DNA of 64,000 bases. Origin: an uncultured Candidatus Berkelbacteria bacterium. Its GTDB lineage: Bacteria; Patescibacteriota; UBA1384; UBA12157. This document shows positions 6,887-58,985 of the stretch, in pieces (the stretch's first letter is position 1; the number at the start of each line of letters is the position of its first letter). The notes beneath the pieces are model-generated. The model was not told the origin of the DNA. It searched no databases and saw only the letters and a program-made list of their open reading frames with translations. The position numbers were made by a program, and so were the translations under genes. The stretch lies in NCBI GenBank assembly GCA_903877885.1, contig CAIRFN010000013.1, forward strand, positions 2,754 through 66,753. The letters run 5' to 3'.

Positions 6887-6924
6887 TTTTGTTTGTTTAG
6901 ATTATACCAGATATCATTAGGTTT

Positions 6925-7676
6925 AACCAAATTACTGACTTCGTAGGTTAGTAATTTGGTTAAACAAATAAATGCTTTTTAATTATTGCTAAATCTTTTT
7001 GATCATTAATTCGACTACTAACAAATTTTTGATATTGTTTTGGTTGAATATCCATCAGACTATTAAAATCGCAAAATGATATAACGTCTTTTCCTAGATA
7101 CTCATCATATGAAGAAAAGCTCCAATCCTCCGGCTCTTTAACCAGTCCGGCTGTTACTGGATTAAGATGTTGATATCTCGTCAAATGCAGTAATTGTTCG
7201 TCACTTTCAACTAAAACATTTTTAAATCTTCCTTCCCATAACGGACCTTTGCGACAATGTTTAGTATTAAAGTATCGAGTATAGCCATTAAGGATATCGG
7301 CAACATATTTTGAAACACCATTTTCTTTTAGTTGTTTTAAAACTAAATGGATATGAGTCGGCATAATACAATAAGCAATTATATGTACTAACTTTTCACG
7401 ATCTTTTGAAATTGTAAATAAGGCATTATCAAAACCAAATTGACCGACTAATCTTGATCTCATAAAAGCCGACAAGCTCAAATCATTTTTAATCTGATAA
7501 TATCTAATAAGGTCGATCATCCGCACATATTCTTCATCATTATTAAAAATTTTGTAACCAGCGATGCTTTTCGTGCAAATATGATAGACTTGATCATTAA
7601 CCAAAAAATCTTTTCTCATATTTGAATTATATCATTACTAAACCCAAATTACTAACCTACGAAGTTAGTAATTTGG
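6925..7676 (-). mobile_element. REPtron-like unit: RAYT (IS200-like Y1 transposase) gene flanked by inverted REP hairpins
   Basis: Hairpins aaccaaattactgac-ttcgtagg-ttagtaatttggtt (6925-6961) and cccaaattactaac-ctacgaag-ttagtaatttgg (7643-7676) are inverted copies flanking the transposase ORF. Confidence 0.65.
6960..7619 (-). CDS. REP-associated tyrosine transposase (IS200/IS605 TnpA-like, Y1 HUH family), copy 1
   Basis: HUH motif HIHLVL; catalytic-Tyr region LTRYQHLNP; paralogous to 21600-22271 and 41462-42133. Confidence 0.8.
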   Translation of the reverse strand: MRKDFLVNDQVYHICTKSIAGYKIFNNDEEYVRMIDLIRYYQIKNDLSLSAFMRSRLVGQFGFDNALFTISKDREKLVHIIAYCIMPTHIHLVLKQLKENGVSKYVADILNGYTRYFNTKHCRKGPLWEGRFKNVLVESDEQLLHLTRYQHLNPVTAGLVKEPEDWSFSSYDEYLGKDVISFCDFNSLMDIQPKQYQKFVSSRINDQKDLAIIKKHLFV

Positions 7677-7685
7677 TTAATTGGC

Positions 7686-11551: not shown

Positions 11552-13543
11552 GATTTTAATTTTCTTTAGTTGATTAATTTCATCTCTAATTATCGCCGCC
11601 TGTTCGAACTGCAAGTTCTGGGCGGCATTTTTCATTTCTTTTTCTTTAGCTTTAATGATTTTCGGTAGGTCTGATAGATCCTTCACTTCGTTCAGGATGA
11701 CAGAAAGGTCGGTTTGCGCTGCTTTTTCTGTCAGTTCATGATCGATAATTGATTCGATATTTTTTTGAATTGTTTGTGGCGTAATATTGTGATCTTTATT
11801 ATATTGAGTTTGAATTTTGCGACGACGTTCAGTTTCATCAATCGCCCTTTTCATCGACCCGGTAATGTTGTCAGCATACAAAATCACTTTGCCGGAAACA
11901 TTTCGGGCCGCCCGACCGATAGTTTGAATTAGAGAAACATCAGACCGCAAAAAACCTTCTTTGTCCGCATCTAAAATGGCAACCAGTGTAACTTCCGGTA
12001 AATCCAAACCTTCGCGAAGGAGGTTTACGCCAACCAAACAATCGAACTCACCACGACGTAAATTTTCCAAAATTCCGACACGGTCAAGTGTTTGAATATC
12101 GGAATGTAAATATTCGGCTTTAACATCGGCTTCTTTTAAGTATTCCGATAATTGTTCAGCCATTTTTTTAGTAATAGTGGTAACCAAAATTCGTTCATGA
12201 TTTTTGGCCCGAACTTTAATTTCTTCGATCAAATCTTGAATTTGATTTTCCGCTGGCCGAATTTCTAATTCCGGATCAATCAAACCAGTTGGACGAATAA
12301 TTTGTTCAACAATATTGTTTTTGGATTTTTCATGTTCGTATTTACCGGGCGTGGCCGAGGTGAAAATGACTTGCGGAATACGGGTCTCAAATTCGTCAAA
12401 TTTAAGCGGTCGATTATCAAAGGCACTCGGAAGTCTAAATCCGTTTTCGACTAATGATTCTTTGCGCGCTCGGTCGCCTGCATACATACCACCGATTTGC
12501 GGCACAGTCACATGCGATTCATCAATCACCATCAAAAAATCTGGCTTACCATTCGTATCAACTGGAAAATATTCCAAAAGCGTATACGGCGCTTCGCCAG
12601 GAGCACGGTCAGTCATGTAGCGCGAATAGTTTTCTATTCCCGAACAATAACCGATTTCTTTCATCATTTCTAAATCAAAACGAGTGCGGCGTCTTAAACG
12701 CTCGGCTTCCAAAATTTTTCCATCTTTGGCAAATTCGGCCAAACGAATTTCTAAATCCTTTTCAATATTTTTAAGCGCGTCTTGCATTTTTGGATCTTCA
12801 ACCACAAAATGCTTGGATGCAAAAATGGTTGTTTCTTCCGGTGTGCCAATTTTTTTCATCGAAACAGCTTCAAATACAGCAATATTTTCCAAAATATCAT
12901 TGGTAAATTCCAATCGAAAAATAATATCTTGATCGACCGGCATAATTTCTATGGTCTGACCATGAACGCGAAACTTGCCGCGTTCGAGAATTTCACTGCG
13001 TGTAAAATACAAATCAATCAGTTGTTTAATAATCTCATTGCGATTATATTTTTGACCACGCTTTAAAAAAAGATAATTTGCGCGATAAGTTTTTGGATCG
13101 CCTAACCCGTAAATGCAAGAAACAGAACAGACAATAATCACGTCTTGGCGGGTCAAAAGTGCTTGAGTGGCGGCGTGGCGAAGTCGCTCAATTTCCTTGT
13201 TGATGTCGGCTTCCTTTTCAATATAGGTGTCGCTGGCTGCCATGTAAGCTTCTGGTTGATAATAATCATAGTAACTGACGAAATATTCAACCGCATTGTT
13301 TGGGAAAAAGGTGCGAAACTCGGAGCAAAGTTGGGCGGCCAAAGTTTTGTTGTGAGCAATTACCAAAGTTGGTTTTTGGATTTTTTCAATCACATTGGCA
13401 ATAGTGAAAGTTTTTCCCGATCCGGTCACGCCCAAAAGAGTCTGAAATTTTTCTCCAGACTTAATACCTTTGATCAACTTCTCAATTGCTTGAGGTTGGT
13501 CGCCAGCGGGCGCATATTTTGAATTGATTTTAAATTCCATATA
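11546..13543 (-). CDS. uvrB: excinuclease ABC subunit B
   Basis: GVTGSGKT Walker A, helicase motifs, C-terminal UVR domain; start set at MEFKINSKY (13543) with AAAGGA RBS, not the upstream in-frame ATG. Confidence 0.92.
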   Translation of the reverse strand, partial: YMEFKINSKYAPAGDQPQAIEKLIKGIKSGEKFQTLLGVTGSGKTFTIANVIEKIQKPTLVIAHNKTLAAQLCSEFRTFFPNNAVEYFVSYYDYYQPEAYMAASDTYIEKEADINKEIERLRHAATQALLTRQDVIIVCSVSCIYGLGDPKTYRANYLFLKRGQKYNRNEIIKQLIDLYFTRSEILERGKFRVHGQTIEIMPVDQDIIFRLEFTNDILENIAVFEAVSMKKIGTPEETTIFASKHFVVEDPKMQDALKNIEKDLEIRLAEFAKDGKILEAERLRRRTRFDLEMMKEIGYCSGIENYSRYMTDRAPGEAPYTLLEYFPVDTNGKPDFLMVIDESHVTVPQIGGMYAGDRARKESLVENGFRLPSAFDNRPLKFDEFETRIPQVIFTSATPGKYEHEKSKNNIVEQIIRPTGLIDPELEIRPAENQIQDLIEEIKVRAKNHERILVTTITKKMAEQLSEYLKEADVKAEYLHSDIQTLDRVGILENLRRGEFDCLVGVNLLREGLDLPEVTLVAILDADKEGFLRSDVSLIQTIGRAARNVSGKVILYADNITGSMKRAIDETERRRKIQTQYNKDHNITPQTIQKNIESIIDHELTEKAAQTDLSVILNEVKDLSDLPKIIKAKEKEMKNAAQNLQFEQAAIIRDEINQLKKIKIS
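11672..11702. repeat. MITE-family segment embedded in frame in uvrB (encodes SVILNEVKDLSD)
   Basis: tgatagatccttcacttcgttcaggatgacag shares 27 of 33 nt with the iscS-embedded copy at 51215-51243 and ends in the family TIR gatgaca. Confidence 0.55.
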
Positions 13544-13553
13544 TCCTTTGTTA

Positions 13554-13584
13554 TTCCGGTCAGGTTGGCAACCTAGAACCGGAA
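13554..13584. promoter_or_regulatory. nested palindrome upstream of uvrB (ttccggtc-AGGTTGgcCAACCT-ag-aaccggaa), candidate operator
   Basis: 7-bp outer and 6-bp inner perfect inverted repeats located 11-40 nt upstream of the uvrB start. Confidence 0.35.
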
Positions 13585-13631
13585 TCCAGTTCCCTGTTAT
13601 TCTATCACAAATCCCCAAATTTATCCACATG

Positions 13632-14580: not shown

Positions 14581-14657
14581 TTGAAATGATTTTATAGATT
14601 GCCACGCTTCCCGCCCGCCGGCGGATCGCTCGCAATGACAAAAAAATTATTTTTCTA

Positions 14658-20670: not shown

Positions 20671-21551
20671 AGCAGGAATTAAAAATCAAGGATTTATATC
20701 GCGAGATAGTATCCGAACTAAAATCAAAGGAGATTAGTACTCCAGAACTCGATGCTCGAGTTATAATTTGCTATGCGCTGAAAATGACAGACGCGGATTT
20801 TTTTAAAACAGATAACGATCTAATTTCAAATTATCAGGCTGACAAGATTATAAAACTGGTTAGGGAGCGAGTAAAAAATATTCCCGTGGCCTATATTTTA
20901 GGTCAAAAAGAATTTTATGGCCTTAATTTTTATGTTAATAAAAATGTTTTAATCCCCCGCCCAGAGTCGGAATGGTTGGTTGAAGAAGCAGTAAAATATA
21001 TTAAAACCCAAAAAAGAAAAATCGCGATTTTGGATCTGGGAACCGGTAGCGGCAATATCATTATTTCGATTTACAAAAGTTTAATGATTGGCAATTGGCA
21101 ATTTGGCGTTAAGTTTCATGCTTCGGATATTAGTTCAAAAGCTTTATTTATAGCTAAAAAGAATGCGAAAAAATATAAGCTTGATAAAAAAATCAAATTA
21201 TTTCATTCCGATCTGTTTTCTAACTGGCGATTGCAGAAAAAATTTGATTTAATCGTGGCCAATTTGCCGTACGTACCGAAAAACAATGAACCGTTAACTG
21301 TTTACCGTTCACCGATCTCATTTGAGCCACAAAATGCCATTTTTGCATCAGATAACGGCGCGGAAATTATTAAAAAGTTCTTGGTTCAAGCCAAAAATTA
21401 TTTAAATAACAATGGTTTAATTTTAATCGAACTCGATCCGCGAAACGCGGCTGATCTTAAGGAATTTACTCAATCGAACTTCCCTAACACCAAAATCCAG
21501 CTCGAAAAAGATTTAGCTGGATTTGAACGCTACCTTATAATTAGAATCTAA
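20667..21551 (+). CDS. prmC: release factor glutamine N5-methyltransferase PrmC/HemK
   Basis: SAM-binding LDLGTGSG; substrate motif reads NLPY instead of the usual NPPY; 4-nt overlap with prfA. Confidence 0.85.
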
Positions 21552-22343
21552 CACTGTACGGCGACCTCGGAGGTAGGCGAACGGTGTTAGACAAATATTT
21601 TAACCCGAATAGTTATCTATCATCATATTCTTTATAACAGAGATTTGTTTCTGATAAGATTTACGATCATTAACAAATTTTCGATATTGTTCAGAAGTAA
21701 AATCAAATAAGCCGTCGAATTGACATAAATTAGCACTATCAATTTTCAAATATTCCAGATAGGAAGAATGGAGCCAATCCTCTGGCTTCTGAACTAAACC
21801 AGCCGAAGAAGCATTAAGATGAAAATATCGTGTTAAATGCAATAACTGATTATCTGTTGAAACTTCCACATCTTTAAATTTACTCTCCCATAGAGGCCCG
21901 GACCGATGATGCTTGGAATTGAAATATCTTGTATAACTATTTAAAACTCTGGACATGAACTTAGAAATTCCTTGGTCGGCGACTTGTTTCAATATTAAAT
22001 GAATGTGAGTTGGCATAATTGTATATGCGATAATTTCAACTAGAACTTGGCTGTTTAATTGAACATTCTGGATTATTTTTTGTTGCAAAAAGGGATTTAG
22101 ATCAGAAAATTTAGAATAACAATAATTGAAATCTATGTATCGATAAAGCTTTAATAGTTCCTTTATTCTTGAAAAATCTTGCGGATCATTAAAAATAGTA
22201 TACTTTGCAATACTACGACTAAAAACATGATAATAATGTCCATTTGCTAATGGATATTTTCGTATATTCATTTATTTAATCATACCATAAGATAATAAAA
22301 TTAACACTGTACGCCTACCTCGGAGGTCGTCGTATAGTGTTAG
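21550..22343 (-). mobile_element. REPtron-like unit 2: RAYT gene flanked by REP hairpins aacactgtacg...tcggagg...cgaacggtgtta
   Basis: Imperfect palindromes at 21550-21589 and 22301-22343 with TCGGAGG loops flank the ORF. Confidence 0.6.
21600..22271 (-). CDS. REP-associated tyrosine transposase (IS200-like Y1), copy 2
   Basis: HIHLIL HUH motif; LTRYFHLN Tyr motif; N-term MNIRKYPLANGHYYHVFSRS like copy 3. Confidence 0.8.
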   Translation of the reverse strand: MNIRKYPLANGHYYHVFSRSIAKYTIFNDPQDFSRIKELLKLYRYIDFNYCYSKFSDLNPFLQQKIIQNVQLNSQVLVEIIAYTIMPTHIHLILKQVADQGISKFMSRVLNSYTRYFNSKHHRSGPLWESKFKDVEVSTDNQLLHLTRYFHLNASSAGLVQKPEDWLHSSYLEYLKIDSANLCQFDGLFDFTSEQYRKFVNDRKSYQKQISVIKNMMIDNYSG

Positions 22344-26779: not shown

Positions 26780-27267
26780 ACTAATTCCTCGATTGCTTTT
26801 TTGAAATTTTCGATAGCCGCTTTGGCAACAAAATCAGTGATTTGATATTCAGTGTTGTGGGCAATTTCATTTCTGACTTTGTGGCCATTCCAAGCCGCGT
26901 TATAGGCGTCTTTAGAGAATCTATGTTCTGATGATTTTAAGCGATCACCCATAGTTAAACCTGGCGCGCGATAACCCTTAAGTAAATGATCCAATAATTT
27001 GTCGGCTTCCAAGACTGCTCTTTGATAATTCGAAGGTTGTCCTAATTGGATTAATTGTTCGATTTCTTGCCATTTACTCAAGACAAACTGACGATCAATA
27101 CTGATATTTTCCTGATGCTGATTTTGGCCTGGATTTCGTTTTTTTATAATCAATTTAAACGGCGTTGAAATTAGCCACCACAAACCCTTCAAGATAGTTT
27201 CGATCATCTGTTGCTCTGTCGATTGACGATGTTTATATTTTTTAACTTGATAAGACATTATTTTCAA
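26776..27267 (-). CDS. hypothetical protein, possible HEPN-like domain (R-x4-H motif RNEIAH near C-terminus)
   Basis: Sits between gatA and gatB; stop overlaps the gatB start (ATGA); start uncertain (TTG at 27267, or ATG at 27258 or 27207). Confidence 0.4.
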   Translation of the reverse strand: MKIMSYQVKKYKHRQSTEQQMIETILKGLWWLISTPFKLIIKKRNPGQNQHQENISIDRQFVLSKWQEIEQLIQLGQPSNYQRAVLEADKLLDHLLKGYRAPGLTMGDRLKSSEHRFSKDAYNAAWNGHKVRNEIAHNTEYQITDFVAKAAIENFKKAIEELV

Positions 27268-28669
27268 ACTCTTGGGCGATTTTTAAAATTTTACTATCTG
27301 ACAATTGTGGACCAATAAGATGTAAACCGACTGGTAGACCATCGATATTTCCGGCTGGCACGCTCATCGCTGGCAGTCCAGCCAGGTTAACGGAAATTGT
27401 ATAAATATCTGATAGATACATTTTGAGCGGATCATCGGATTTTTCGCCGATTTTGAAAGCCGTGGTTGGCATAACCGGGCCTAAAATCAAATCGACTTTA
27501 GAAAAAGCCTCTTCAAAATCTTGTTTAACCAAGGCTCGCACCTTTTGGGCTTGATTATAATATTGGTCAATATAGCCAGCGCTCGAGGTATAGGTACCTA
27601 AAATAATGCGGCGTTTGACTTCCGCGCCCAATCCTTCGGAGCGGGAATTAATATATTTTTCCAACAAATTATCGCCTTCGGCTGAAAAACCGTACTTAAT
27701 GCCATCGTAACGCCCCATATTAGAAGCAACTTCCACCGGAACGATAATATAGTAACAGCTCAAAGCATATTTGGCATTTGGTAGTTCAATGTCGATAATT
27801 TCGGCGCCCATGGCTTTGAATTTACCAATCGCCGCTTCAATTACTTTTTTGACTTCAGAATCTAGTCCTTCGGCAAAATATTCGCGCGGGATGCCAATCT
27901 TAAGATTTCTAGATTCCAGATCCTGCGCCCCGCCGGTCTGGAATGACAACGAAGTCGAGTCTTTTTCATCATAACCTTTGATAAGATCAAACAAAATTTC
28001 GGCATCTTCGGCGGTTTTAGTCATTGGCCCAATCTGATCAAGCGATGATGCCATGGCCATTAATCCGTAACGACTGACTGCGCCATAGGTTGGCTTAAAG
28101 CCAGTTATACCACAAAAACTAGCAGGCTGACGAATTGAACCACCGGTATCGGAACCAAGCGCCGCGATACACATGTTGGCGGCGACGGCGGCAGCCGAGC
28201 CGCCTGATGATCCACCAGGAACGCGATCTAAATCATGAGGATTGCGGGTAACGCCATAGGCCGAGTTTTCGGTTGAAGAACCCATAGCAAATTCGTCAAG
28301 ATTGGTTTTGCCGATAATGACCGCGCCAGCAGATTTAAGTTTCGATATTACAGTCGCATCATATGGCGCCACAAAATTTTCCAAAATTTTGCTACCAGCC
28401 GTTGTTTTCGTATCCAGCATACACATATTGTCTTTGATAGCGACTGGAATACCATCGATTTGGGATAACGGTTGATTATTTCGATATCGTTCGTCTGATT
28501 CCTTAGCCGATTTTATCGCTTCATCTTTTAGTACCAATAAAAAAGCATGGATATCTTTATCTTTATGCTCGATTTCATCTAAACAGGCTTGTGTTAACTC
28601 TTGCGATGTGATTTCGCCTGATTTCAACTTTTCGCTTGCTTCTTTGATTGTTAGTTCATTTAGTTTCAT
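27242..28669 (-). CDS. gatA: Asp/Glu-tRNA amidotransferase subunit A (amidase)
   Basis: Amidase signature GGSSGGSAAAVAA; conserved catalytic-Lys region. Confidence 0.93.
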   Translation of the reverse strand: MKLNELTIKEASEKLKSGEITSQELTQACLDEIEHKDKDIHAFLLVLKDEAIKSAKESDERYRNNQPLSQIDGIPVAIKDNMCMLDTKTTAGSKILENFVAPYDATVISKLKSAGAVIIGKTNLDEFAMGSSTENSAYGVTRNPHDLDRVPGGSSGGSAAAVAANMCIAALGSDTGGSIRQPASFCGITGFKPTYGAVSRYGLMAMASSLDQIGPMTKTAEDAEILFDLIKGYDEKDSTSLSFQTGGAQDLESRNLKIGIPREYFAEGLDSEVKKVIEAAIGKFKAMGAEIIDIELPNAKYALSCYYIIVPVEVASNMGRYDGIKYGFSAEGDNLLEKYINSRSEGLGAEVKRRIILGTYTSSAGYIDQYYNQAQKVRALVKQDFEEAFSKVDLILGPVMPTTAFKIGEKSDDPLKMYLSDIYTISVNLAGLPAMSVPAGNIDGLPVGLHLIGPQLSDSKILKIAQEFENNVLSS

Positions 28670-28956
28670 TCGAACACCTGCTTTACTTTGATATAACCTT
28701 TTTCTTGTGAGGGCGCATTGGTCAGTAGTTTTTCGCGATTATTTTCATTGGTAATTTTATCTTCTCGAACAATATTTTCCAGTCCGGAAATTTGCGAAAC
28801 TGATTTGATTTTAGTCAAGTCAAGTTCATTTAATTCATCAATATAATTTAAAATCTCGCCGAGTTCTTGAGTAAACTTTTCTTCTTCAATTTTAGTTAAA
28901 TTCAAACGGGCCAATTGAGCCACGTGTTCAACATCAGTTTTTGATATCTGTGCCAT
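28666..28956 (-). CDS. gatC: Asp/Glu-tRNA amidotransferase subunit C
   Basis: 96 aa; conserved N-term DVEHVAQLARL; overlaps gatA start. Confidence 0.85.
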   Translation of the reverse strand: MAQISKTDVEHVAQLARLNLTKIEEEKFTQELGEILNYIDELNELDLTKIKSVSQISGLENIVREDKITNENNREKLLTNAPSQEKGYIKVKQVFE

Positions 28957-33506: not shown

Positions 33507-33598
33507 TGGATCCCAGATCAAGGATTCCATCCTGTCTGGGATGACATTAATAATACCCCTTAATGTCATTTTACCTTTTAAGGTATTGACATTCAAGC
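33507..33598 (-). promoter_or_regulatory. ligA promoter (TTGAAT-17-TAAAAT) with two hairpins / a 10-bp perfect inverted repeat just downstream of -10
   Basis: On minus strand: -35 ttgaat, 17-nt spacer, -10 taaaat; then atgacattaa-N9-ttaatgtcat and atcccag-N17-ctgggat palindromes before the start codon. Confidence 0.4.
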
Positions 33599-39350: not shown

Positions 39351-40541
39351 CTATTTAATAATTCCTCCACCCAGAACCTCTTCTTTGTAATAGAAGACGA
39401 CTGATTGACCAGGCGTAATTGCTCGTTGCGGTTTCTTAAATATTACTCTAACTTCTTCATCATTAATATGTGTAATCTGACAAGGTTCGATTGGATGACC
39501 ATGACGGATTCTGGCACTTATATTATTTGTTTTTGGTTTATTAATCCAGTTTAAATTTGTGGCCACCAGTTCTTTTTGGAATAAATCTTCATCTTGACCG
39601 ACAATTAATTCATTGGTTTTACTCTTCAATTTTATCACATAATAAGCGTTCGGACCACCCAAACCCAAACCTTCGCGCTGACCGATTGTGTAATTTATTA
39701 AACCGTCATGCGTGCCGATTTGGGTTTTGGTTTTGATGTCAATAATCGGACCAGGCTCGGTTAGATTTTGAGCGTAGCGGCGTAAAAAGCCGCCAACATT
39801 TCTGTCCGGAATAAAACAAATGCCTTGGGACTCACGGCGCGTCGCGGTCGGAAGTTGCATCTCGAGAGCCAGTTGGCGAATTTGCGGTTTAGTATAATCG
39901 CCACAAGGAAATAAAACGTGGGCTAATTTTTCTTGTGTTAGCGTCCACAAAAAATAAGTTTGATCTTTAACTTTGTCTTTCGGTTGCAAAAAATGATATC
40001 CGGTTTTGTCTTTTTTGATTCTGGCGTAGTGACCAGTCGCTAAATATTCGGCATCTAACTCAAAGGCTTTTTGCATCAAAAGTTCGCCTTTAATATCACG
40101 ATTACAAATCACGCACGGATTTGGCGTGCGACCCGATTCATATTCTTCAATATAATAATCCACCACTAATTTTTTAAATTCTTTTTCAAAATTAACAACA
40201 TAAAAAGGAATGCCCAGCTTTTTGGCCACCGCGCGAGCGGCAGTCGAGGCGTCCACCGAGCAACAGATATTTTCGCGCAAACCAGATGTTACCACCTTGG
40301 AGGTGGTAACTTGAGGTTCAGCCCAAAGCTTCACGGAGTCTGAATCTTTGTCGCCGGAATCGCTCCAAAGCTTCATAAAAATTCCCACGACGTCAAAGCC
40401 CTGTTTTTTTAGTAGCGCGGCGGCAACCGATGAGTCCACTCCGCCAGACATTGCGCACACTACTCGTGGTTTCTTTCTGTCATTGCGAGCCGCCGCAGCG
40501 GCGTGGCAATCTTTCTTTAAATTGTCATTTTCTTTTTTCAT
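39351..40541 (-). CDS. mnmA: tRNA-specific 2-thiouridylase MnmA, carrying in-frame repeat insertions
   Basis: SGGVDSS PP-loop, catalytic Cys residues, C-terminal barrel; extra ~25 aa after FMKLW and a GC-rich N-terminal extension. Confidence 0.9.
   Translation of the reverse strand: MKKENDNLKKDCHAAAAARNDRKKPRVVCAMSGGVDSSVAAALLKKQGFDVVGIFMKLWSDSGDKDSDSVKLWAEPQVTTSKVVTSGLRENICCSVDASTAARAVAKKLGIPFYVVNFEKEFKKLVVDYYIEEYESGRTPNPCVICNRDIKGELLMQKAFELDAEYLATGHYARIKKDKTGYHFLQPKDKVKDQTYFLWTLTQEKLAHVLFPCGDYTKPQIRQLALEMQLPTATRRESQGICFIPDRNVGGFLRRYAQNLTEPGPIIDIKTKTQIGTHDGLINYTIGQREGLGLGGPNAYYVIKLKSKTNELIVGQDEDLFQKELVATNLNWINKPKTNNISARIRHGHPIEPCQITHINDEEVRVIFKKPQRAITPGQSVVFYYKEEVLGGGIIK
40283..40375. repeat. 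REP hairpin (gttaccaccttggaggtggtaac + ttgaggttcagcc) inside the mnmA reading frame, with 11-nt direct repeats ccaaagcttca
   Basis: 23-nt hairpin identical to 30617-30639; encodes AEPQVTTSKVVTSG, absent from E. coli MnmA. Confidence 0.7.
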
Positions 40542-40620: not shown

Positions 40621-40693
40621 AATAGTATTTAAATTAATTCTACTACCTAAAAAACCGCCTGGACTAACCAAAGCGGTTTTTTGATATTTTCTT

Positions 40694-40765
40694 TGTCATT
40701 CCGGACTTGATCCGAAATCTAGTTTATTTAGCCCGCCCCGTGATGAACGAAGTGAATTTTACGGG
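40694..40765. repeat. MITE-family copy (tgtcattccgga ... gatgaacgaagtgaa ... acgggg)
   Basis: Carries the TGTCATTC TIR and the gaacgaagtgaa core shared with the uvrB/iscS-embedded copies; overlaps the stop of the 40759 gene. Confidence 0.5.
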
Positions 40766-41423: not shown

Positions 41424-42182
41424 AACCATATAGCGTACACCCTGGAAGTGTACATTGAGGTTTAGCCGGAGTAATTATCAATCAAAATATTTTTGATTAG
41501 CGCCAAATCGCGTTGATATGATTTTTGGTCAAGAACAAACTTCTTGTATCTTTTTGGCGACATATCAATGATTTCTTTAAATAAGCAAATCGGATTATTC
41601 ACTTCCTCGCAAAATTCTTTTAGAGAAGAAAAAGGCCAATCAAACGGATTATCAACCAAACCAGCTGAACTCGGATTTAGGTGCACATAGCGTGTTGAGT
41701 GTAATAATTGATTATCATTTTCAATTAAAACATTCCTGAAATGTCCTTCCCATAATGGACCGTTTCGATGATGTTTTAAGTTAAAATATCTAGTATAACT
41801 ATTTAAAATTTTACCGATATATTTTGAAATTCCATCATCTTTTTTCTGCTTTAAAATAAGATGAAAATGCGTCGGCATAATACAATAAGCCACAATTTCG
41901 ACCAAAACATCGTTATTCTTTTTTAGGCTATTTAAAATAGCCGTTTGAGCCATCATCTCCAGTTCTTTAAACCTTGAGTACTTATGATTAAATTCCGCAA
42001 AACGGTACATATCCAAGAGTTCTAAAATCCTATAATAATCATCGTCATCATTAAAAATCTGATATTTAGCGATACTCCGACTAAAGATATGATAATATTG
42101 GTCGGTTGCTAAAGGCGTTTTTCTAATATTCATAAGTCGATTATACCACAATGTACACCCCGGGGGTGTACATTGGTTTAAC
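41424..42182 (-). mobile_element. REPtron-like unit 3: RAYT gene flanked by inverted REPs (aaccatatagc-gtacaccctggaagtgtac-attgaggttt / aatgtacaccccgggggtgtacatt-ggtttaac)
   Basis: GTACAC/GTGTAC stems in inverted orientation on both sides of the ORF. Confidence 0.65.
41462..42133 (-). CDS. REP-associated tyrosine transposase (IS200-like Y1), copy 3
   Basis: HFHLIL HUH motif, STRYVHLNP Tyr motif; start set at MNIRKTPLA (42133) because the upstream ORF extension is encoded by the REP hairpin. Confidence 0.8.
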   Translation of the reverse strand: MNIRKTPLATDQYYHIFSRSIAKYQIFNDDDDYYRILELLDMYRFAEFNHKYSRFKELEMMAQTAILNSLKKNNDVLVEIVAYCIMPTHFHLILKQKKDDGISKYIGKILNSYTRYFNLKHHRNGPLWEGHFRNVLIENDNQLLHSTRYVHLNPSSAGLVDNPFDWPFSSLKEFCEEVNNPICLFKEIIDMSPKRYKKFVLDQKSYQRDLALIKNILIDNYSG

Positions 42183-42200
42183 AATCATTAAATCTCCAAC

Positions 42201-48809: not shown

Positions 48810-48906
48810 TGTCATTCCAGACTGGCTGGCAGCAAGATCTGGAATCTGTCTAATCTAAATAATCTGGATTCCCGATGTCGGATTGCCATCTGGCTCGAGA
48901 ATGACA
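48810..48906. repeat. complete MITE-like element with TIRs tgtcattccagac / gctcgagaatgaca
   Basis: 97-bp intergenic element; internal ggaatctgtctaatctaaataatctggattcc palindrome; TIR shared with copies at 2846, 40694, 51189, 58231. Confidence 0.55.
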
Positions 48907-49888: not shown

Positions 49889-50272
49889 TCACTTTTTGTT
49901 TTGGAAATCTGCGATTGCTTTTTGGAGTGCTTCCTCGGCCAAAACTGAACAATGACGTTTGACTGGCGGTAAACCGTTTAAAGCTTCAACCACTGCATTA
50001 TTGGTCACTTTTAGAGCTTCTTCAATAGTTTTACCAATCACTAAATCGGTTAAAATCGAGGAAGTGGCGATGGCGGCCGTGCAACCAAAAGTCTGAAATT
50101 TGGCATCAGTAATAATATTATTTTCAACTTTGATTTGCAGTTCCATTAAATCGCCACAAACCGGATTGCCGACCCGACCGACGCCGGACGGATTATCTAA
50201 CTCTCCCATATTGTGCGGGTTTTTAAAATGTTCCATCACTTTATCCGAATAAAGATTTGAGATATTGCTCAT
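49889..50272 (-). CDS. iscU: Fe-S cluster assembly scaffold (IscU/NifU-like)
   Basis: GNPVCGD, FGC, conserved Cys triad. Confidence 0.88.
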   Translation of the reverse strand: MSNISNLYSDKVMEHFKNPHNMGELDNPSGVGRVGNPVCGDLMELQIKVENNIITDAKFQTFGCTAAIATSSILTDLVIGKTIEEALKVTNNAVVEALNGLPPVKRHCSVLAEEALQKAIADFQNKK

Positions 50273-51495
50273 TTGTATTCCTTTGGACTTAAGGGACTTA
50301 TTTTTCTTAATTTGGCGATAATTTCTTTTAAATTTTCGATTGTATAATCGATTTCTTCTTTGGTTGAATTTTGACCCAAGGTAAAACGAATTGAACCGTG
50401 AGCCCGTTCGGCATCACTGTAAACCGCCATTATGACGTGCGATGGTTGAAGCGACAACGATGTGCAAGCCGATCCCGAGGAGGCAGCAATCCCGACTAAA
50501 TCTAAATTCATTAAAATTGATTCGCCTTCGACATATTTAAAATAAACATTGACATTATTTGGGCTACGAAATTCCTTACCACCATTTAATTCTGTTTCTG
50601 GAATTTCTTTTAGAATTCGGCCGATGAAATAGTCTCTGATATTCTTTATCTCATTTCTTATTTCTAATTTCTCGTTTCTTAATTCTTCGACGGCTTTTCC
50701 AATTGCCACAATTGACGCCACATTTTCTGTGCCAGCGCGACGGCCGAACTCTTGCTCGCCACCATGCATCATTGGCATAATATTCACGCCTTTTTTGACA
50801 AACAAAACGCCAACGCCTTTGGGCGCGCCGATTTTATGACCGGAAATAGTCAATAAATCAACATGTAAATAATCGACATCCATATTTTGATATTCAGCCG
50901 CCTGAACCGCGTCGGTGTGAAATAATATTTTGAGTTCGCGAGCGTCATTTTCTTTTTCGATCATTTTTCCAATGGCACGGATCGGATTAACTGAACCAAT
51001 TTCATTATTAACATACATAATAGAAACTAAAACAGTATTTTCTTTAATCGCCGCTTTAACCGCATCAACTTCGATTATGCCGTCTGTATTTGGTTTTAAG
51101 TAAGTTACTTCCACACCGCTTTTTTCCAATGTTTTACAGGAATTCAAAATCGCATGATGTTCTATTTGGGAAGTAATGACATGGAATTTGTCATCCTGAG
51201 GCTTAGCCGAAGGATCTAGATTCTTCACTTCGTTCAGAATGACGCTATTAACCATTCCTTTAATCGCCAAATTATCAGATTCGGTGCCGCCAGAAGTAAA
51301 AATAATTTCCGCCGGATCGGCATTTAAAAACTTAGCGATCTTAATTCTTGATTCATCAACCGCAATCCGAGCGGCACGGCCCCATTCGTGCATACTCGAA
51401 GGATTACCGTAATCCGTTGTCAGATATGGCATCATTTCAGTTAAAACTTCGGCTTTTATTGGCCCAGTCGCCGCATAATCAAGATAAACCTTCAT
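50269..51495 (-). CDS. iscS: cysteine desulfurase (IscS/NifS), carrying an in-frame repeat insertion
   Basis: PLP-lysine region ISGHKIGAPKG, SSGSACTS active Cys; extra ~14 aa (SVILNEVKNLDPSAKPQDD) after DNLAIKG. Confidence 0.9.
   Translation of the reverse strand: MKVYLDYAATGPIKAEVLTEMMPYLTTDYGNPSSMHEWGRAARIAVDESRIKIAKFLNADPAEIIFTSGGTESDNLAIKGMVNSVILNEVKNLDPSAKPQDDKFHVITSQIEHHAILNSCKTLEKSGVEVTYLKPNTDGIIEVDAVKAAIKENTVLVSIMYVNNEIGSVNPIRAIGKMIEKENDARELKILFHTDAVQAAEYQNMDVDYLHVDLLTISGHKIGAPKGVGVLFVKKGVNIMPMMHGGEQEFGRRAGTENVASIVAIGKAVEELRNEKLEIRNEIKNIRDYFIGRILKEIPETELNGGKEFRSPNNVNVYFKYVEGESILMNLDLVGIAASSGSACTSLSLQPSHVIMAVYSDAERAHGSIRFTLGQNSTKEEIDYTIENLKEIIAKLRKISPLSPKEYK
51189..51243. repeat. MITE-family element embedded in frame in iscS (TIRs tgtcatcctgag / ttcagaatgaca)
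   Basis: Short (~55 nt, count approximate) element with inverted ends; shares tcttcacttcgttcagRatgac with the uvrB copy. Confidence 0.6.
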
Positions 51496-51704
51496 TATTT
51501 ATCCTCGTTCTTAACTAGTTTTCGTAAGTCTTCGATACAACGTTTGCATTCGCCTTTTAAAGTTAGATATTTTTTGTACGACACAACCACCGCAATCGGT
51601 TCAGAATAGCGCATCACTTCATATGCAGTGTCATCTTGAACATCTTTCAAAATACTGGAAATTTGCGCCTGAAGTTCGTTAACATTAATTGTTTTTGTTT
51701 TCAT
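51495..51704 (-). CDS. small Phd/YefM-antitoxin-like protein, translationally coupled to iscS
   Basis: 69 aa; the N-terminal ~50 aa fits the Phd/YefM pattern (MKT..., ...EPIAVVVSYKKY); stop overlaps iscS ATG by 1 nt; no toxin gene adjacent. Confidence 0.4.
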   Translation of the reverse strand: MKTKTINVNELQAQISSILKDVQDDTAYEVMRYSEPIAVVVSYKKYLTLKGECKRCIEDLRKLVKNEDK

Positions 51705-52007: not shown

Positions 52008-52040
52008 AAAGTACACCCCGGGGGTGTACTTTGGTTTAAA
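52008..52040. repeat. REP hairpin aaagtacaccccgggggtgtacttt-ggtttaa
   Basis: Same family as the right REP of RAYT3 (42150-42182). Confidence 0.6.
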
Positions 52041-58230: not shown

Positions 58231-58323
58231 TGTCATTCCCGACCGGATGGCGTCCGGATCGAGAATCTAGATCCCCGATATCGAATTACCATTCGGTTCG
58301 CCTTTAGGTAAATTGGATGACAT
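58231..58323. repeat. MITE-like element with TIRs tgtcattc / ggatgaca
   Basis: Internal gaatctagatcc and ccgaatggtaattcga shared with other copies; right TIR abuts the stop of the 58326 gene. Confidence 0.5.
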
Positions 58324-58940: not shown

Positions 58941-58985
58941 AACCTTATAATGTACACCCTGGAAGTGTACGTTGGTTTTAATTAC
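58941..58985. repeat. REP hairpin aaccttataa-tgtacaccctggaagtgtac-gttggttttaa
   Basis: Near-identical to the left REP of RAYT3 (41424-41467). Confidence 0.6.

Follow-up and report, generated by a model that had tools for sequence, protein, structure and literature searches.

A dimer of (C/T)GTC-tagged hairpin repeats, probably gained and translated within the NifS-type cysteine desulfurase of a Patescibacteria-like genome

Intragenic elements of the repetitive extragenic palindromic (REP) and Rickettsia palindromic element (RPE) kinds have been known since the work on Rickettsia and were surveyed in 2013. RPEs are reportedly selfish repeats that lie in frame within genes, including essential ones, with the function of the host gene kept; the classic RPE-1 is said to comprise about 100–150 bp and to be confined to Rickettsia. 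REPINs are reportedly inverted REP doublets with a GTAG tetranucleotide, which come with a cognate REP-associated tyrosine transposase (RAYT). Here, a 54-nt element was analyzed that lies within the nifS-type cysteine desulfurase gene on a stretch of 64,000 nt from an uncultured Candidatus Berkelbacteria bacterium (contig CAIRFN010000013.1; the whole stretch is called the window below). We conclude from comparative sequence analysis, with a probability of roughly 0.7, that this segment is a dimer of two (C/T)GTC-tagged REP hairpins, which was gained after the split from the nearest sampled relatives and is now translated.

The closest described repeats belong to the CGTC-tagged superfamily of REPs (Di Nocera, De Gregorio & Rocco 2013, BMC Genomics 14:522; PMC3733652), which include dRS3 of Neisseria and RPE-4 and RPE-6 of Rickettsia conorii. 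According to this survey, the tag is CGTC with the variants TGTC and CCTC, the stem opens with A-T and T-A and is continuous over 8–9 bp, the loop comprises 4–5 nt, and the unpaired 3-nt tail is mostly CCA. Dimers with the tags outside, termed HH there, prevail, and their units are sometimes only 1–2 bp apart. The survey reports copies from five phyla, mostly downstream of genes, and no associated transposase; the uvrB gene of R. conorii carries two single units, and encoded peptides include VIPAKAGI, LDSRLRGND and VILDGRNIEF.

The nifS element shares with these repeats an unpaired (C/T)GTC tag (CGTC in its unit 1, TGTC in its unit 2 and in a related unit in uvrB), the A-T/T-A start of the stem, perhaps the short unpaired tail, and the prevalence of HH dimers, whose units can be 1–2 bp apart. 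Intragenic copies occur in uvrB in both cases, the peptides begin with VI and end with ND or DD, the frames being those read as VIL...QDD here, and no RAYT-like open reading frame (ORF) adjoined any unit in our seed-limited search. In contrast to these repeats, the stem is broken by a tandem G.A/A.G and continued by a mini-hairpin of 2–3 bp with a 3-nt loop (GCGAAGC type), and the tail is CTN and not CCA, although the units of a second subfamily in the window, subfamily B, possess CCA. The host is CPR (candidate phyla radiation)/Patescibacteria-like, and the range of phyla is far wider than the five given in the survey. On these features the element matches the CGTC-tagged REPs at the level of the superfamily, which is divided into the families CGTC-1 to -4. 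With RPEs it has in common that it lies in frame in protein-coding genes at fold-compatible positions, in NifS and in other hosts; it differs by its size of 54 bp and its two autonomous hairpin units, and the link to RPEs is given only via the assignment of RPE-4 and RPE-6 in the survey. REPIN/RAYT systems resemble it in the inverted hairpin doublets, the conserved unpaired tetranucleotide, the single units found alongside, and the presence of RAYT-type genes in the genome. Their tag is GTAG instead of (C/T)GTC, and the defining linkage of REP and RAYT was not found here, as three RAYT-like genes are accompanied by other hairpins.

The element occupies positions 51190–51243 of the window on the minus strand. 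It comprises 54 nt, or 18 codons, and encodes VILNEVKNLDPSAKPQDD, which corresponds to residues V85–D102 of NifS. The initial annotation had described a complete inverted-repeat element with both arms inside the ORF and with the frame kept, and this description holds. The interval proposed there, 51189–51243, was correct to within one base; position 51189 is a conserved flanking base. On the gene strand the element reads GTCATTCTGA-ACGAAGT-GAAGAATC / TA / GATCCTTC-GGCTAAGCC-TCAGGATGAC and forms a REP dimer in HH orientation. Unit 1 (25 nt; 51219–51243, minus strand) consists of the (C)GTC tag followed by ATTCT-GA-[AC GAA GT]-GA-AGAAT-C, and unit 2 (27 nt; 51190–51216, plus strand) of the (T)GTC tag followed by ATCCT-GA-[GGC TTA GCC]-GA-AGGAT-C. 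Both are separated by a 2-nt spacer TA (51217–51218), which is the centre of a ATCTAGAT palindrome and which was also found in two further element-bearing loci (L002, L064) and in at least 125 metagenome dimers. The covariance model R1 assigned 39.5 bits (E = 2.4e-7) to unit 1 and 38.3 bits to unit 2; both units were among its training sequences. The outer stems of the two units differ at two positions only, and these two positions pair with each other. What is preserved is therefore the hairpin of each unit and not the identity of the two arms. The pattern GTCATYCTGA-N5-12-GAAGRATC occurred three times in the window, twice at nifS and once in uvrB (11677–11701), and in none of 100 dinucleotide-preserving shuffles. 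Stop codons are found in five of the six frames of the 54-nt dimer, and nifS uses the single open one. The sequence GGAATGGTT lies in the nifS region 51150–51290 around the element, and GMVNSVILNEVK and NLDPSAKPQDDK are the tryptic peptides predicted at the insert. A full-text literature search for the DNA string of the element and for peptides such as VILSEAK and HSERSEES returned nothing relevant, and a search for REP in combination with Patescibacteria yielded one irrelevant paper only.

In order to characterize the unit structure, covariation was analyzed in an alignment of 86 units, drawn from the window and viral contigs, and the 83 viral-contig units were used for base counts; both sets were taken from the matches listed. 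The four variable stem pairs covary. Of all cells, 93% are paired, and double changes were found in 98 cells compared to 41 in shuffled alignments, a number that was reached by none of 500 shuffles. The signal collapsed when the partner columns were slid, and two of the four pairs, which belong to the inner region, were not constrained by the search pattern. The common plan is an ATYCY / RGRAT stem, the conserved tandem G.A/A.G, and a mini-hairpin of 2–3 bp, which is often GCGAAGC or GCGCAGC. This gives 9–10 stacked stem positions, two of which belong to the tandem, and a loop of 3 nt (GAA, TTA). In the covarying structure, the three bases GTC at the 5' end are unpaired, and the 3' end is followed by C-T. 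Among the 83 viral-contig units, the base at position -1 before GTC is T in 64 and C in 15 units (T or C in 79). The tail is C-T-N, with T at +1 in 56 of the 83 units; the subfamily-B units of the window end with CCAG or CCAGT. GTC and GTCAT...ATC were fixed in the search patterns, and the start of the stem is independent evidence only for directly read units; all units of the window, including subfamilies B and C, read GTC-AT...AT-C. The numbers of G.T and A.C mismatches (7 versus 6) allowed no inference about the strand. A hammerhead and a K-turn, which had been considered with respect to CUGA...GAA and the tandem G.A, were rejected upon inspection, as CUGA is not followed by NGA and a 3-nt bulge is lacking.

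Transposable elements of the miniature inverted-repeat kind (MITEs) sometimes occur inside ORFs, and the element had initially been labelled as one. A classical MITE, i.e. a deletion derivative of an insertion sequence (IS) with a DDE transposase that moves by cut-and-paste via its terminal inverted repeats, would agree with the inverted arms, with the dispersed copies, with a length of 54–56 nt at the low end of the MITE size range, and with ends that read TG...CA together with the flanking bases (CG...CA at nifS), as in many DDE elements. However, target-site duplication was not above chance: for 114 non-redundant dimers among the matches listed, a 2-nt match of the flanks was found in 17 cases compared to about 14 expected from base frequencies, and longer matches in four cases. 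Around these dimers, conservation was limited to T at -1 and A at +1, and no target motif was detected. Furthermore, lone arms occur, for example in uvrB and gatA, and are conserved as tagged and covarying hairpins, and the arms of the nifS copy differ by a compensatory pair that keeps the stem of each unit and not the identity between the arms. A related full-length IS was not seen in any of the loci, which were inspected by eye without a search for a parent IS. Compared with bacterial MITEs such as the Correia elements of Neisseria and the MITEs of Coxiella (PMC10969869, PMC5896051), the element is likewise short, non-autonomous, dispersed and bounded by inverted repeats, but it lacks the target-site duplication, has no parent IS in the loci inspected, and possesses arms that are independent hairpins. 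From the label, the description as a dispersed inverted-repeat element can be retained; an origin as a classical MITE is quite improbable.

The host gene (50269–51495, minus strand) codes for a nifS-type class I cysteine desulfurase of 408 residues, as judged from profile matches, alignment and a structural model. It had been named iscS. The assignment to class I cysteine desulfurases is correct, but the NifS profile TIGR03402 gave 487 bits (cut-off 531) compared to 403–411 bits for IscS profiles; both scores are below the curated cut-offs, and by sequence the protein is of the NifS type and nearer to NifS than to IscS proper. The ORF aligns end-to-end with solved cysteine desulfurases (E = 6e-102), and the sole large gap comprises 14 residues that the target lacks exactly at the insert. 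The integrity of the catalytic motifs, whose inspection had been recommended, was confirmed: residues H113, D195, Q198, the pyridoxal phosphate (PLP)-binding K221, the active-site Cys344 and R370, which we take to be the equivalents of the catalytic residues of E. coli IscS, are invariant in an alignment of 61 sequences. An AlphaFold2 model reached a predicted local distance difference test (pLDDT) value of 92 and a predicted TM score (pTM) of 0.91. In a Foldseek comparison it gave TM values of 0.88–0.96 to IscS, NFS1 and NifS, with deviations of 1.6–2.0 A for the closest structures.

These results bear on the possibility that the segment arose as an artefact of assembly or sequencing, or that the gene is a decaying pseudogene with a broken frame. 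Nothing more than the unusual nature of the insert speaks for it. The ORF is unbroken and lies next to an intact nifU, none of the catalytic residues varies, and the confident model superimposes on solved enzymes. Moreover, an independent European Nucleotide Archive (ENA) assembly from another sample (L244) is 98% identical at the nucleotide level and contains the identical element. An artefact and a pseudogene are therefore practically excluded. All 24 nucleotide differences between the nifS genes of the window and L244 lie within the last ~70 nt of the gene (about 50279–50346), and the L244 product is seven residues shorter; this cluster at the 3' end looks like a local recombination or replacement tract.

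The insert site coincides with the loop AANFYQKKGK of E. coli IscS, as originally proposed; the alignment of homologues assigns it to residues 86–95. In the model of NifS, the helix that starts at residue 70 extends via VILNEVKN to residue 92; residues 93–104 form a loop of low confidence (mean pLDDT of 58 for residues 91–100), which is followed by the conserved strand HVITS. The encoded peptide is thus predicted to lengthen the preceding helix (VILNEVKNL) and to add a Pro/Asp-rich loop (DPSAKPQDD). The equivalent loop of E. coli IscS is surface-exposed and outside the IscU footprint; the exchange F89E in this loop left IscU binding intact and modestly lowered the binding of ThiI (PMC2854127). 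The loop thereby contributes to ThiI docking, which raises the possibility that the insert was co-opted as a new surface of NifS, for example for the docking of a partner, and is kept by selection at the protein level. The predicted extension of the helix by the first half of the insert and the identical element in the second strain are in line with such a role. However, the peptide varies where the hairpin allows it (NEV, SKA or SGA in different carriers), both the length and the sequence of the loop are hypervariable, unrelated proteins contain the same peptide, and the model confidence is low over residues 91–100. We therefore regard co-option as very unlikely; most likely, the insert is a tolerated passenger, i.e. 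neutral baggage without a new function.

Across 120 Patescibacteria-type homologues, this loop comprises between 7 and 57 residues, and its commonest form, G-LVLPFIYxGKxKP-H, is spread over the tree. The nearest relatives outside the species of the query, which are 77–79% identical outside the loop, possess a short loop of 13 residues and no element. Since the closest NifS relatives lack it, the element is by sequence comparison a secondary gain, and the possibility raised beforehand that the segment is ancestral in this lineage does not apply. The same element was found at the same place in two further NifS proteins (P0021 and P0119), and again the nearest relatives of each are without it. 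The three carriers are mutually 57–71% identical. Their DNA shares the outer sequences of the element and the reading frame, and one carrier has a different spacer. The inner mini-hairpins differ; they read ACGAAGT, GCAAGGC and GTGGAGC in unit 1, and the variants in unit 2 are GGCTAAGCC and GGCTGTGCC. All of them are still paired, one pair via a G-T wobble, and the encoded residues change; the other two carriers have ACGTCAGT and GGCACAGCC besides GCAAGGC and GTGGAGC. The parsimonious reading of these sequences is that the element arrived in the NifS loop at least three times independently. The nifS gene of P0119 contains in another loop a second complete dimer with tags outside (L002:1190–1245; 27+2+27 nt), which is in frame as well. 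It is read as HSEAKPKNPDPSLSAQDD, and its first unit is consequently in a frame other than the VIL reading.

Other inserts were noticed in these loops. A repeat-like insert of the type ...ENG.QKIEN...SNFQ.PISKPISNFHQPF is present in two NifS loops of several lineages, namely after AIKG in P0075, P0081, P0082, P0093, P0100 and P0106, and after query residue 187 in P0079, P0085, P0093, P0111 and P0021. Further recurrent types in the first loop are SKFLISKQIQNPKFQ and NFQFSIF. The NifS proteins of the CPR thus contain at least two insertion hot spots that accept several repeat families.

The strict unit pattern was found at no fewer than 120 loci in each of three collections (viral, genome and metagenome sequences). 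The record titles of the loci listed name Saccharibacteria, Chloroflexota, Acidobacteriota, Nitrospirota, Bacteroidota, Firmicutes, Planctomycetota, Verrucomicrobiota, Gemmatimonadota, Proteobacteria and Cyanobacteria. The records comprise metagenome-assembled genomes as well as isolates, and the Bacteroidota listed include cultured Pedobacter, Mucilaginibacter, Hymenobacter and Flavobacterium. Among the genome loci listed, 27 dimers have their tags outside (HH), five have them inside (TT), and seven are tandem (HT). The reading frame was analyzed for 118 non-redundant TA-spaced metagenome dimers among the matches listed, where a dimer was regarded as embedded if it lies at least 40 residues deep in an ORF of at least 200 residues. 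Of the 32 embedded dimers, 24 have a length divisible by three, compared to 37 of the 86 dimers elsewhere (Fisher p = 0.003); the VIL frame is the one read in 27 of the embedded dimers. This bias in frame and length is what a selection filter acting on random arrivals would leave. When the ten longest hosts of the 54-nt dimer were scanned, nine had Pfam matches; the hosts include carbamoyl-phosphate synthase CarB, SecA, ArgRS, GlyRS-beta, TGT, a beta-CASP nuclease and a capsule-synthesis protein. One metagenome contig (L280, JAEEGK010011855.1) contains 53-nt dimers at 1484–1536, 2878–2930 and 11873–11925, each within one of three similar open frames of 450–526 residues, where it is read as CHSERSEESRSFGKPQDD with similar flanks; these may represent paralogous genes with one copy of the element apiece, or a larger repeat in which the element is included.

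The breadth of this distribution and the conserved unpaired bases could also be explained if the motif were an immobile DNA or RNA signal that is useful to the host, e.g. for transcript stability or termination, or as a recombination or binding site, and that arises or is kept up by convergence; the nifS copy would then be incidental or regulatory. Two intergenic copies of the window lie just after terminator-like hairpins, which agrees with such a signal. The published CGTC REPs are mostly downstream of genes and have no known transposase (PMC3733652). On the other hand, the same 54-nt dimer occurs inside unrelated housekeeping genes, where it has no obvious role, and its arrival in nifS is patchy and recent. 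Furthermore, Rfam contains no matching family: over the whole window nothing reached the gathering thresholds, and at the element only weak matches to snoRNAs and CRISPR repeats were obtained with E values up to 10, the best of which (E = 1.3) was taken as chance. An immobile signal is therefore an unlikely explanation.

Altogether, about 14 related units were found at about 12 sites of the window by means of the covariance model and a simple scan for tag plus stem. Two of them, besides the nifS copy, are in frame within genes. A single unit of the same subfamily (11677–11701, minus strand; R1 42 bits, also a training sequence) has a TGTC tag and encodes VILNEVKDL in uvrB, in the stretch just before the C-terminal segment, where it causes no net change in length compared to solved UvrB structures. 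A single subfamily-B unit of the type TGTCATTCCAGAC...GATCTGGAATCT (27912–27947, minus strand) is translated as LSFQTGGAQDLESR in gatA (ORF 27245–28738, minus strand). It lies in the variable segment between DSTS and LKIGIPREYF; as there is no net gain in length compared to solved GatA, it replaces existing sequence. Since both units are in variable stretches that did not change in length, the route into genes may be replacement or later trimming and not simple insertion. The intergenic copies of the window include two dimers, one of subfamily B with tags outside (48811–48905, plus strand), which is located ~1 kb downstream of nifU, and a degenerate one with a ATCTAGAT centre (58232–58321, plus strand), which follows a terminator-like hairpin. 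Single intergenic units belong to subfamily B (33509–33545, minus strand) and to subfamily C (14597–14639, minus strand), the latter with the sequence TGTCATTGCGAGC...GTGGCAATCT; both were detected by the window scans. The scans also located a subfamily-C unit (40479–40511, plus strand) antisense in the 5' end of the listed mnmA ORF (39351–40541, minus strand), where it falls in the N-terminus KDCHAAAAARNDRK; if the true start of mnmA is further downstream, as it may be, the unit would belong to the leader. Two degenerate units are found upstream of the likely start codon of uvrB (13546–13590, plus strand) and after a terminator-like hairpin (40691–40723, plus strand).

The combination of a tagged hairpin, missing target-site duplications, and a mixture of single units and dimers suggests single-strand, structure-specific handling. 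We propose that the copies spread as single-stranded DNA hairpins, with a structure-specific enzyme acting on them in trans. For this role, a Y1/HUH tyrosine transposase of the RAYT/IS200-like class, which acts without target duplication, would be the most plausible candidate. The intragenic copies would be the remainder after purifying selection, and survivors would be those that add whole codons, use the one stop-free frame, and sit in a tolerant loop.

Three paralogous RAYT-like Y1/HUH genes are present in the window on the minus strand, each with its own inverted palindrome pair: 6963–7631 (palindromes 6923–6959 and 7644–7680), 21603–22271 (21548–21589 and 22302–22343), and 41462–42184 (41435–41453 and 42153–42171). 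Their products score 27.6–33.7 bits with Pfam Y1_Tnp, which is above the cut-off, and the NCBIfam model of the REP-associated tyrosine transposase is their best match with 61–71 bits at a cut-off of 80 bits. The HUH motif is visible by eye, and the segment RY.HLN may, by its sequence, hold the catalytic Tyr. Each gene together with its palindromes resembles a REPtron-like cassette. The hairpin GTACACCC(C/T)GG(G/A)(G/A)GTGTAC, which flanks the gene at 41462–42184, occurs in additional copies at 52011–52029 and 58952–58970, one copy of this type lying ~300 nt upstream of the phd-nifS-nifU operon; it represents another REP-like family of this genome, which is unrelated to the first.

Several observations weigh against our interpretation of the nifS segment as a gained, mobile REP dimer. 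The three RAYT-like genes of the window are bracketed by three other types of hairpins and none by TGTC units. A search of 2.76 Mb of other element-bearing loci, whose sensitivity was limited by its seed sequences, detected a single RAYT-like ORF, which lies 3.8 kb from a unit, and none that adjoined a unit. As no RAYT-like gene lies beside TGTC units, mobilization in trans is offered as a hypothesis. Nearest-neighbour folding of single units is weak, with -0.8 to -4.5 kcal/mol as DNA and z values from +0.7 to -1.7, so that single units do not stand out from shuffles. The full dimer as RNA gave -17.9 kcal/mol (z = -2.2), and folding energy was not used as evidence; in view of the weak values for single units, it is covariation that carries the structural case. 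At nifS, no clean insertion took place, since 22 residues stand where the ancestral loop had about 11, which is a net gain of 11. Taken together with the units in uvrB and gatA, which brought no net gain in length, a simple cut-and-paste insertion is not demonstrated. The independent gains were deduced from a neighbour-joining tree without bootstrap and from identity ranks only. Finally, a polymorphism of empty and filled sites was not seen: the sole near-identical contig (L244) has the element, and the locus from which the empty site was taken (L003, protein P0002; ~77% identical at the protein level outside the loop) has diverged too far for the breakpoints to be determined.

The operon context of nifS is compact. 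The scaffold gene nifU/iscU (49889–50272, minus strand; TIGR03419 194.9 bits, above the cut-off) overlaps the stop codon of nifS, and nifU downstream of nifS is of the clostridial type and intact. This nifS-nifU operon is probably the route of Fe-S cluster assembly in this organism. Directly upstream of nifS, a gene of the Phd/YefM family (51495–51704, minus strand) overlaps or abuts its start. Such a gene, of 67–73 residues, precedes nifS in all five loci examined, namely in the window, at L001:791–1000, L003:2087–2308 and L244:156–365, and in the P0009 locus, and a toxin gene beside it was seen in none of the five. The Phd/YefM protein may be a conserved partner of NifS and not an antitoxin.

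A more far-reaching and rather doubtful view is that the TGTC-tagged dimer with its tandem G.A is one element that spreads horizontally through much of the bacterial domain and has evolved to be translatable, with the NifS loop after AIKG as a true targeting hot spot of an unrecognized enzyme instead of a site that is only tolerant. If this were true, the single open frame, the length variants in whole codons, and the hydrophilic helix-plus-loop peptide would be properties of the element, and it would have preferred sites in essential genes. The driver would possibly be found among the RAYT-like paralogues, which are unusually dense in this genome.

For the preferred reading of a REP dimer that reached nifS as a tolerated passenger, three points go slightly beyond what is routine for intragenic repeats: the repeated arrivals in one loop of NifS, how broadly the family is distributed, and the signature of selection in frame and length. 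The phenomenon of RPEs and intragenic REPs would now include a CPR-like genome and, as a host, the cysteine desulfurase of a nifS-nifU operon, and one very widespread hairpin family would be translated repeatedly inside housekeeping proteins, at least three times in the NifS loop. As the family has a clear structural signature but no known mobilizing enzyme, it offers a clean target in the search for this enzyme. Furthermore, such inserts would account for odd differences in length and for low-complexity "loops" among CPR proteins, and they can lead alignments and domain calls astray. The sites that they mark as permissive would be natural maps of insertion tolerance.

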